A stretch of DNA of 64,000 nucleotides from an uncultured Phycisphaeraceae bacterium (GTDB taxonomy: Bacteria; Planctomycetota; Phycisphaerae; Phycisphaerales; UBA1924). Below the pieces are notes generated by a model. The model did no database searches and was not told the origin of the DNA. It saw only the letters and a list, made by a program, of their open reading frames with translations. Numbering within the stretch: position 1 is the first letter of the stretch; each line of letters begins with the position of its first letter. The translations under genes were made by a program, and so were the position numbers. The DNA lies in the NCBI GenBank assembly GCA_964639935.1, contig CAZXGT010000001.1, forward strand, positions 6,635-70,634. Reading direction: 5' to 3'. Positions 52,940 through 62,101 of the stretch are shown here, in pieces.

Positions 52940-53187
52940 GGGGCTCGGTATTCTCCCTCTCCCAGCTGCGACATCGCCGCGGGTCCGGAGAATAACGCCC
53001 GCCGGGATCAACCGCTGGCATCCAATCAGCCGATGCGGGCGACGCCGCGAGAGGAGCACCGCCCACCCATGCCCCCCCATCCTCGCTTATTCACATCGGC
53101 TATCACAAAACCGGCACGACGTGGCTTCAGGCGTTCATCTTTGACAACGCGGACCTCGGCTTCACGAGCCCGTGGTCCCGCGGCGAG

Positions 53188-54003
53188 ATGATCGAGCGGA
53201 TTGCGCTGACCAAGCCGCTCTTCTATGACGCCGAAGCGACGCGGGCGTGGCTCACGGAGGGCATGGCGGAAGCCGGCGCCCGGGAGCTCATTCCGGTGCT
53301 TTCCGCGGAGCGCTTCAGCGGGAATCCGCACTCCGGCGGGTACGACAGCGAGCTGATCGCTCGGCGCTTTGCGGCCGCGACGCCGGAGGCGCGAGTCGTG
53401 GTCATCACGCGCGAGCAGCGGGCGATGATCGCCTCGTGCTATAAGCAGTACGTCCGCGTGGGCGGAGTCTGCTCGGCCCGCGGCTATCTCCGGCCTCCTC
53501 TGCTCGGGCGGCCGCGCGTGCCGCTCTTTGATGCCGACTTTTTTCAGTACGACCGCCTCATCGGCCTCTATCGCGGGCTCTTCGGCGCCGACGCCGTTCT
53601 CGCGCTGCCCTTCGAGCGGCTCAAGGAGGATCCGCAGTCGTTCGCCGAGCGGATCATCGCGTTCGCCGGGGCGCCGAAGCCCGGCCCGATCCCGCGGGAG
53701 AAGAAGAACGTGGCCCTCTCGGCGTTGGCGTGCTCGATCAAGCGGCAGTTCAATCGGTTTCTCGTGCGCGACGCGCTCAACCCGGGGGCGCCGGTGGGGA
53801 ATCCGCGCGTCGCCGGAGCGGTGCAGCGGGCGTTCGAGTCCGCCGACCGCCTGACGCCCGGGACGGTCCGGGCCCGGAGCGAGCGTCGCCTGCGCCGCCT
53901 TGTCGATGAGGTCGCCCGCGAGCGGTACGCCGAGAGCAATCGCCGGCTCTCGGAGATGATGGGTGAGGATCTCGGGGCGCTCGGGTACGACGTCGGGGTA
54001 TGA
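53188..54003 (+). CDS. Sulfotransferase; the annotated ATG removes the PAPS-binding loop, and the true 5' end appears frameshifted at a C7 tract
   Basis: In-frame upstream codons (53083..53187) read [23 protein letters not shown] but contain no ATG, GTG or TTG back to the stop at 52993. ATG 53069 is out of frame by one C (see finding). Confidence 0.72.
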   Translation: MIERIALTKPLFYDAEATRAWLTEGMAEAGARELIPVLSAERFSGNPHSGGYDSELIARRFAAATPEARVVVITREQRAMIASCYKQYVRVGGVCSARGYLRPPLLGRPRVPLFDADFFQYDRLIGLYRGLFGADAVLALPFERLKEDPQSFAERIIAFAGAPKPGPIPREKKNVALSALACSIKRQFNRFLVRDALNPGAPVGNPRVAGAVQRAFESADRLTPGTVRARSERRLRRLVDEVARERYAESNRRLSEMMGEDLGALGYDVGV

Positions 54004-54029
54004 AAAAAGCCGCTCCAGAGAGAGCGGCT
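54003..54029 (-). terminator. Rho-independent terminator of sat
   Basis: 8-bp stem AGCCGCTC / GAGCGGCT (54008..54015 and 54022..54029) with a 6-nt loop. T6 follows on the minus strand (A6 at 54003..54008 on plus), about 30 nt past the sat stop. Confidence 0.65.
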
Positions 54030-54058
54030 CATGACGTGTGCGAGTCAGGCGGCGAGCC

Positions 54059-62037: not shown

Positions 62038-62101
62038 GATCCGGAGCGTAGCAGAGCCGATGCGGCGCCGACGCGCCCGCGCGGCGGGGGGGCGTCCTGA
62101 G

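Follow-up and report, generated by a model that had tools for sequence, protein, structure and literature searches.

A species-wide out-of-frame start at a poly-C run in a selectively maintained sulfotransferase gene of a Phycisphaeraceae bacterium, and its possible reading by +1 slippage of tRNA-Pro

The window analysed here is a 64,000-nucleotide stretch of contig CAZXGT010000001.1 from an uncultured Phycisphaeraceae bacterium, and the element in question is a gene assigned on its motifs to the sulfotransferases dependent on 3'-phosphoadenosine 5'-phosphosulfate (PAPS). Its ATG, at position 53069, is separated from the coding body by a run of seven C that leaves the two out of frame. The frame break is real, shared by the whole species and old (synonymous divergence, dS, of ~0.15), and selection continues to act on the gene. 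Restoration of the frame by the cell, at the run itself, is thus more probable than a dead gene or a sequence error. The poly-C run is newly evolved, selection has kept the out-of-frame start beside it, and readthrough by slippage of tRNA-Pro appears the most likely explanation, with phase variation remaining as a rival of rather low probability.

The start region and the coding body are laid out as follows.

53053..53056, + strand: Shine-Dalgarno-like GGAG, 12 nt before ATG 53069; intact orthologs have a GGAG at similar spacing.
53069..53071, + strand: ATG start, the sole start codon usable by the sulfotransferase and the positional homologue of the ATG of intact orthologs (MTTPLIHIG..., MTRPLIHIG...).
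53072..53078, + strand: C7 run, read in the ATG frame as CCC CCC C, a CCC-C slippery motif at codons 2-3.
53072..53085, + strand: hypervariable linker from the ATG to the first conserved codon, CTT; 14 nt here (3n+2) and 13, 13, 10 and 7 nt (3n+1) in the other alleles.
53069..53191, + strand: ATG reading frame, 40 codons, MPPHPRLF...AAR*, with a sequence not kept between alleles.
53086..54003, + strand: sulfotransferase coding body, 305 codons, from Leu-Ile-His-Ile-Gly to the TGA at 54001-54003.
53098..53124, + strand: 5'-phosphosulfate-binding loop GYHKTGTTW, with its Lys at 53107; aligns with TYPKSGTTW of human SULT2B1.
53188..53190, + strand: first canonical in-frame start and the choice of gene callers, giving a 271-aa product without the PAPS loop.
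53410..53436, + strand: 3'-phosphate-binding motif R-EQRAMIA-S; aligns with RNPRDVVVS of SULT2B1.

The seven C (53072-53078, followed by A53079) stand directly 3' of A53069-T-G53071 on the + strand. The frame of the open reading frame (ORF) at 53188..54003 is open back to 52996, immediately downstream of a stop at 52993-52995, and contains no ATG, GTG or TTG upstream of ATG 53188. Joining ATG 53069 to this frame takes one more C, or two fewer; with the extra C, the product has 311 aa. A preliminary description of this DNA had reported the ATG with its C7 run and stop at 53191, the lack of a start in the loop-bearing frame, and the joining of the two frames by one extra C or the loss of two; all three points were confirmed. 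The TGA at 53189-53191, which ends the 40-codon ATG frame, overlaps ATG 53188 (ATGA), and termination-reinitiation there could yield the loop-less 271-aa protein in the window allele only.

The joined 311-aa protein scored 34.4 bits against Pfam Sulfotransfer_1 (PF00685; cut-off 22), matching profile positions 4-186, and passed Sulfotransfer_3 (PF13469) with 33.3 bits (cut-off 27). The 271-aa ORF from 53188 scored 19.3 against Sulfotransfer_1, under the cut-off of 22, with a match that begins at profile position 88 and has lost the first 87, which supports a loss of function in the short form; the earlier claim that a start at 53188 would delete the cofactor-binding loop is correct. In a comparison with solved structures, IHIGYHKTGTTW was aligned to the 5'-phosphosulfate loop FIITYPKSGTTW of human SULT2B1, and RVVVITREQRAMIASCY to its 3'-phosphate motif KVIYMGRNPRDVVVSLY. 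The former has the K-[ST]-G-[ST]-T pattern and is unchanged across ~45 orthologs, and the latter has the Arg...Ser pair. With the Pfam thresholds passed and both nucleotide-binding motifs present, the enzyme is by sequence a member of the PAPS-dependent sulfotransferase family. The His in SGNPHSGGYD, conserved in all orthologs, is a candidate catalytic base. As part of the explanation favoured below, we tentatively suggest that the gene encodes a working PAPS-dependent polysaccharide sulfotransferase.

The 271-aa product falls in a 90% cluster of six sequences, the DNA of which gave six further assemblies. These comprised the metagenome-assembled genome (MAG) GCA_963990925.1 (L009), MEGAHIT assemblies of ERR2437276 and ERR2407578, a Logan contig of ERR2407578, and JGI 3300012009 and 3300012002 (a contig of the latter is L014). 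The seven assemblies in all represent at least four Illumina metagenomes and two MAGs, obtained via MEGAHIT, Logan, JGI and MAG pipelines. Project PRJEB25599 covers the Tebenquiche and La Brava hypersaline mats and was sequenced on an Illumina MiSeq (10.1101/870428). The linkers between the ATG and the first conserved codon are as follows.

Window: C7ATCCTCG, 14 nt, 3n+2.
L012: C7ATCCCG, 13 nt, 3n+1.
L009: AC8GCCG, 13 nt, 3n+1.
L011 and L013: ATC7G, 10 nt, 3n+1.
L010 and L014: C6G, 7 nt, 3n+1.

None of the seven assemblies is in frame; they carry five different linker alleles, and the spacing is 3n+1 in four of the five alleles and six of the seven assemblies. The flanks are common to all seven, with the 19-nt GGAG/ATG region GGAGCACCGCCCACCCATG identical upstream and CTT-[A/G]TT-CA[C/T]-ATC-GGC downstream. 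In the 1.16-kb alignment of the seven sequences, which includes the 130-nt intergenic region, the linker is the sole site of insertions or deletions. A search of a 5.8-billion-cluster collection, performed with the full-length protein and with an N-terminal 123-aa fragment as queries, returned no in-frame protein of >84% identity. Pattern scans at the DNA level that allowed any tract length, run on collections of metagenome and genome contigs from which records close to the source genome may be missing, likewise gave no match. An error of sequencing or assembly in the homopolymer, with the true sequence in frame, had been among the readings offered in the preliminary description, and the source genome is indeed a MAG in 235 contigs. 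The seven assemblies are nonetheless all out of frame across several pipelines, with reproducible alleles; run ERR2407578 gave the same tract from two assemblers; and the Tebenquiche and La Brava data come from Illumina MiSeq (10.1101/870428), on which runs of C6-C8 are read reliably. With five out-of-frame alleles in assemblies made by different assemblers, a consensus error is unlikely in the extreme.

The length of the C run varies between strains (C6, C7 and C8), and no pair of alleles differs in C count alone, changes of run length always being accompanied by others. Haplotypes with 4-13 differences elsewhere have identical tracts (L011 and L013; L010 and L014), and the tract is therefore stable. 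L009 is basal in the gene tree. The 3n+1 alleles differ from one another by net indels of 3, 3 and 6 nt, and the window allele, the sole 3n+2 allele, differs from L012 by one inserted T outside the C run. From these sequences, it is the +1 configuration as such that looks conserved, even though in a C run one would expect slips of a single base to be the most frequent mutation. An apparent premature stop in L014 (3510-3574) was rejected: the last ~45 nt are unrelated contig-end junk, and the other half of the gene is on a second contig from the same sample (L015). The ATG frame stops earlier in the other alleles than in the window, and in the 3n+1 alleles with TTT at the equivalent of window 53137-53143 (L009 and L012) it ends in CUU UGA C, an exact prfB shift site. 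Rescue at this prfB-like site was considered and the site treated as a coincidence, in that a shift there bypasses the PAPS loop and the TTC alleles lack it.

Selection on the sulfotransferase frame was assessed from the ratio of nonsynonymous to synonymous divergence (dN/dS), which ranges pairwise from 0.04 to 0.2 within the species cluster. Between the window and L009, nonsynonymous changes make up 11 of 42, where 74% would be expected (p=1.2e-10), and the comparison of L009 with L010 gave p=2.6e-11. As comparators, dN/dS is 0.25 between two intact orthologs and 0.14 between the window and an intact ortholog, and no relaxation of selection is detectable in the out-of-frame alleles. The neighbouring genes are under tighter constraint, with dN/dS of 0 for uxs and ~0.05 for sat. 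The 305 codons are open and collinear in all six full-length copies, without a second lesion. In the 34 codons (102 nt) that separate the linker from ATG 53188, six changes are synonymous and one replaces Ile by Val (p ~0.002 against neutrality, by our own arithmetic), and this constraint indicates that the segment with the PAPS loop is translated in the sulfotransferase frame. In close pairs with different tracts, 0-1 nonsynonymous changes were found against 6-10 synonymous ones. The locus thus combines the same disruption across diverged lineages with purifying selection downstream, which is the pattern of a conserved frameshift.

These data bear directly on parallel recent inactivation, according to which the enzyme would be dispensable or harmful in the mats and each lineage would have lost it independently at the most mutable site. 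In its favour, no allele is in frame, a frameshift would be expected at the C run before anywhere else, and events of very recent date would not yet have raised dN/dS. Such a history nevertheless needs four or five independent hits in one spot of 7-14 nt and none elsewhere in 915 nt. Parsimony places the 3n+1 spacing at the base of the cluster, so that the later divergence (dS up to 0.18) would have accrued in a dead gene, in which dN/dS is nevertheless 0.12-0.14 (p=1e-10 to 3e-11); the close pairs with different tracts speak against it as well. We regard this history as improbable. Recent plain pseudogenisation, as suggested in the preliminary description, is likewise unlikely in view of the low dN/dS, the absence of a second lesion and the constraint on the 34 loop codons.

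The ancestry of the start was examined through orthologs. The syntenic gene of a same-genus genome (G001) is intact, with GGAG, a spacing of 10 nt, then ATG ACG ACG CCT CTG ATT CAC..., and no C run, and a relative of 84% identity reads ATG ACG CGA CCG CTG ATC. Among ~50 orthologs (~44 proteins plus further genome loci), all starts lie 1-55 residues before the loop, with many reading M-LIHIGYHK, and 20 of 20 loci from genomes of the family and order have an in-frame ATG, GTG or TTG start and no C run. Because the N-termini of the orthologs vary, the residues between Met and Leu-Ile-His are unconstrained; the comparison further identifies ATG 53069 as the ancestral start and the C run as a novelty of this species cluster. 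None of the ~50 orthologs starts at the equivalent of 53188, so this comparison, which the preliminary description had proposed, leaves a loop-less start unsupported.

Non-canonical initiation would make the ATG irrelevant, as translation would begin in the sulfotransferase frame at the near-cognate ATT 53089 or ATC 53095, or upstream of the run. The orthologs that begin at M-LIHIGYHK indicate that a very short N-terminus is tolerated, and purA, on contig C159, is another gene with no canonical start in its frame, for which CTG may serve. However, relative to the upstream DNA, the body is in one frame in the window and in another in the 3n+1 alleles, which rules out an upstream start common to both, and L009, L010, L011 and L013 (with GTTGA for the ATCCA of the window) have an in-frame TGA ~45 nt upstream. 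Neither frame contains CTG, GTG or TTG, and ATT 53089 is GTT in L012. The ATT and ATC codons lie 32-38 nt from the GGAG, and their use would remove part of strand beta-1, whereas the ATG and the GGAG are invariant and homologous to the start of the orthologs. This route is accordingly considered very unlikely.

With canonical and near-cognate starts both set aside, what is left is that the length of the tract changes, whether in the DNA, in the RNA or during translation. The explanation that we favour, tentatively, is a fixed one-base frameshift compensated by ribosomal +1 slippage of tRNA-Pro; we infer both the restoration of the frame on the ribosome and its efficiency from the sequence. Initiation would take place at ATG 53069, followed by decoding of one or two CCC proline codons. 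A fraction of the ribosomes would then slip forward, with peptidyl-tRNA-Pro re-pairing from CCC to the overlapping CCC or CCG, and would stay in the sulfotransferase frame to produce the full enzyme, while the non-slipped ribosomes would yield a useless peptide of 20-40 residues. The frameshift would act as a strong attenuator, the leak of which may depend on N1-methylation of G37 (m1G37) in tRNA-Pro and on elongation factor P (EF-P). After a single +1 slip, CCG-CTT-ATT... would be read, giving predicted N-termini of MPPL-, MIPPL-, MTPPPL- or MPP(I/H)PL-IHIGYHK.

Shift-prone codons are present in all five alleles: within codons 2-4 of the ATG frame, CCC occurs twice and is followed by C or G. 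Frameshifting of tRNA-Pro by +1 at CCC-C beside AUG has been described with Escherichia coli reporters and reconstituted ribosomes (Gamper, Masuda, Hou 2015; PMC4519876, PMC6335274). No position measured in E. coli was more prone to +1 shifts, with ~1% for fully modified tRNA; m1G37 and EF-P keep the slip in check, slippage being higher when either is absent, and tRNA-Pro(UGG) slides readily on CCC-CG (PMC4519876, PMC6335274). The locus has the same sequence context as those reporters, with a Shine-Dalgarno sequence, an AUG and CCC-C or CCC-CG at codon 2, and a one-base forward slip would lead to the full-length protein. The genome encodes tRNA-Pro GGG, UGG and CGG together with TrmD and EF-P, and so shares with the E. 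coli system tRNA-Pro GGG and UGG, TrmD and EF-P. The reporters are engineered and their shift is treated as a translation error of ~1%, whereas the present configuration is natural, fixed in the species and under selection. No suppressor tRNA-Pro was found, as all three species have a normal 7-nt anticodon loop and G37. An 84-nt 'tRNA-Pro(CGG)' reported by ARAGORN on contig C2 (73852-73935), with mismatched stems, a long extra arm and 73% GC, was set aside as probably a false positive and not a frameshift suppressor.

A fixed 3n+1 frameshift with a constant low leak would explain the conserved phase, the indels in multiples of three, the stable tracts and the unrelaxed selection. Several points weigh against it. 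The allele of the window itself is 3n+2, for which a single +1 slip gives no rescue; this allele would need a -1 or +2 event, may be weaker or null, and is a probable hypomorph or null. No stimulator was found at the locus: a Shine-Dalgarno-like sequence at 3 nt upstream is lacking, the A-site codons at the shift site (GCU, GCC and CAU) are neither stops nor rare, and there is no RNA structure beyond chance (fold z-score +0.55). Slippage may for this reason reach no more than ~1%. Attenuation by means of a frameshift is uneconomical and rare in bacteria, and a mechanism of such low efficiency would have to be selectively sufficient. Furthermore, five alleles of shared ancestry are a small sample, and under random phases p is ~0.05 for a set with no allele in frame and four or more sharing the same off-phase (own arithmetic). 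That a free-living bacterium should carry a selection-maintained fixed frameshift at codons 2-4 and make its sulfotransferase only via an AUG-proximal CCC-C +1 slip is possible but doubtful.

Two further systems offer partial parallels to ribosomal slippage. The G7 run of herpes simplex thymidine kinase can carry a 'savior' indel with low-level compensatory frameshifting (PMC5009743). There, too, one base has been gained or lost in a G/C homopolymer of ~7, a small fraction of ribosomes that restore the frame is what preserves the gene, and low expression is selected; the viral case, however, arises mid-gene under drug selection within the host, whereas the present one concerns codons 2-4 of a bacterial gene and has endured over a dS of ~0.15. 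Used +1 frameshifts at CCC are known from the Listeria phages PSA, A118 and A500 and from pheL, with CCC_UGA (PMC5009743). The productive event is again a +1 slip of peptidyl-tRNA-Pro from CCC. Those sites pair CCC with a stop or slow codon and give a second, longer product, whereas here the shifted product would be the sole useful one, and there is no slow A-site codon.

On the level of DNA, slipped-strand phase variation would have gains and losses of C during replication switch one of the four sulfotransferases of the island, with OFF cells in the majority in the sampled mats and rare ON cells favoured episodically, for example where a phage or grazer recognises the unsulfated glycan, which would keep selection on the gene. 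Such contingency loci with poly-C or poly-G are exemplified by Neisseria meningitidis siaD with (dC)7, among ~115 predicted genes (PMC5084427). The fucosyltransferases of Helicobacter pylori and the capsule and lipooligosaccharide genes of Campylobacter are also named among them. As in siaD-type loci and in the 7C tract of Mycobacterium tuberculosis glpK (10.1101/717272), which provides a high-GC precedent, a G/C homopolymer lies in the 5' coding region and its length, which varies among strains, sets the frame; with the siaD-type loci the gene also shares a glycan-modifying product. A homopolymer directly after the start of a gene for surface-glycan modification is the textbook location. The run differs between strains, lies within the only indel hotspot of the 1.16 kb and is newly arisen in the species, where orthologs have ACG ACG CCT or ACG CGA CCG. 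Purifying selection is retained, and every allele is one C off the in-frame state.

Against switching, no ON allele was found among the seven assemblies or in public gene calls, so that ON and OFF forms do not co-occur. No two alleles differ by the number of C alone, the sole 3n+2 allele is due to a T insertion outside the run, and identical tracts persist across haplotypes that have diverged elsewhere. Runs of C6-C8 are no longer than the background of this 2.54-Mb genome, which has 798 G/C runs of length 6 and 159 of length 7, rarer than its composition predicts; as a run, the C7 is ordinary here, and its position and the frame break are what set it apart. MutS and MutL are encoded, in contrast to the weak repair expected of phase-variable hosts. 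A genome-wide scan of 2290 runs of at least 6, which sought those with a start close by and a coding-like body in a different frame, gave no second convincing case, and hence no phase-variable set. Contingency loci show both ON and OFF forms, alleles that differ in length only and tracts longer than the background, none of which was seen here, and the present organism, unlike the hosts of such loci, is a free-living, mismatch-repair-proficient member of the Phycisphaerae from hypersaline mats. Fast switching predicts that OFF alleles drift between 3n+1 and 3n+2 by single C and that some consensus sequences are ON, and neither was seen; slow switching predicts a relaxed dN/dS, as all tips are OFF, and dN/dS is unrelaxed. 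Of the proposal of phase variation in the preliminary description, the variation of the C run thus stands, whereas ON alleles and pairs that differ by length alone are missing, tracts are shared and mismatch repair is present. Phase variation is in our view rather unlikely, and ribosomal +1 slippage, which that description did not include, is at least as well supported by the sequences.

Transcriptional slippage would restore the frame in the RNA, through a polymerase that stutters on the template G run so that some mRNAs gain or lose one C and are in frame. The population and selection evidence is the same as for slippage on the ribosome, alleles of the 3n+1 and 3n+2 types could be rescued alike, and conserved homopolymer frameshifts under selection are known. 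Tamas and colleagues are said to have described, in 2008, frameshifts in poly(A) tracts of Buchnera and Blochmannia that are rescued in this way. The likeness lies in a homopolymer frameshift conserved across lineages in a broken gene under purifying selection. Those tracts, however, are A9-A12 in AT-rich reduced genomes, where the polymerase slips efficiently, whereas here the run is C6-C8 at 69% GC. Known cases of productive transcriptional slippage require runs of ~9 or more A or T, or special motifs of the T5C5 type with a hairpin (PMC5009743). The present run is neither long nor of A or T, its rC:dG hybrid of 6-8 bp is the most stable possible and slips least, and no upstream hairpin adjoins it. 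Slippage of the polymerase is thus expected to be poor at such a tract, for which ribosomal slippage of tRNA-Pro is the documented route, and we assign the transcriptional alternative a low probability.

The source genome is a MAG of 2.54 Mb, 89% complete, and the homologs of the gene are labelled Phycisphaerae or Phycisphaerales. The gene sits between uxs/ugd and the ATP sulfurylase gene (sat), in an island with glycosyltransferases and three more sulfotransferases; these three sulfotransferase genes have ordinary in-frame starts. One further feature separates it from its neighbour.

54007..54030, no strand assigned: GC-rich hairpin between the convergent sulfotransferase and ATP sulfurylase genes, scored as a minus-strand terminator.

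Given this hairpin between convergent genes, the sulfotransferase gene is a single-gene unit with its own upstream region of 130 nt. In GCA_963990925.1 (L009 3817-4763, compared with the window from 54004 onward), the sequence diverges completely right after the sulfotransferase stop, and another gene, of 311 aa, replaces ATP sulfurylase. Within the species, dS of the sulfotransferase gene (0.14) is about twice that of the adjacent uxs (0.08), and the locus looks like a hotspot of recombination or diversity.

Two other sites were recorded. At 62086-62092 of the window, a G7 run (C7 on the minus strand) lies in a short divergent intergenic region between a minus-strand sulfotransferase gene (ATG 62109 or, more likely, 62036) and a plus-strand gene of glycosyltransferase family 4 (GT4; ATG ~62102). 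The run is ~10 nt upstream of the GT4 start, and a change in its length would shift the spacing of the GT4 ribosome-binding site. Outside the window, on contig C159 (~2380-2480), the gene purA for adenylosuccinate synthetase (...RVTAVAGLQWGDEGKGKIVD...) has no in-frame ATG, GTG or TTG upstream of the conserved N-terminus. Its only ATG is out of frame, with a frame that ends at a TGA right after a G6 run, and the likely start is a CTG 6 nt after AAAGGA.

In the output of gene callers and MAG pipelines, this gene appears as a protein of 271 aa that lacks the cofactor loop, and the break is easily dismissed as a homopolymer error; the population data show both views to be wrong. If the frame is restored on the ribosome, this would be the first natural gene known to depend on an AUG-CCC-C +1 slip, until now a laboratory model for the keeping of the frame by m1G37 and EF-P, and a rare case of chromosomal +1 recoding outside prfB. 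If the enzyme is made only through the slip, the level of sulfation would be a read-out of m1G37 methylation of tRNA-Pro, EF-P activity or proline supply. If a DNA switch operates instead, homopolymer contingency loci would extend to the Planctomycetota of hypersaline mats and to the sulfation of surface polysaccharides.

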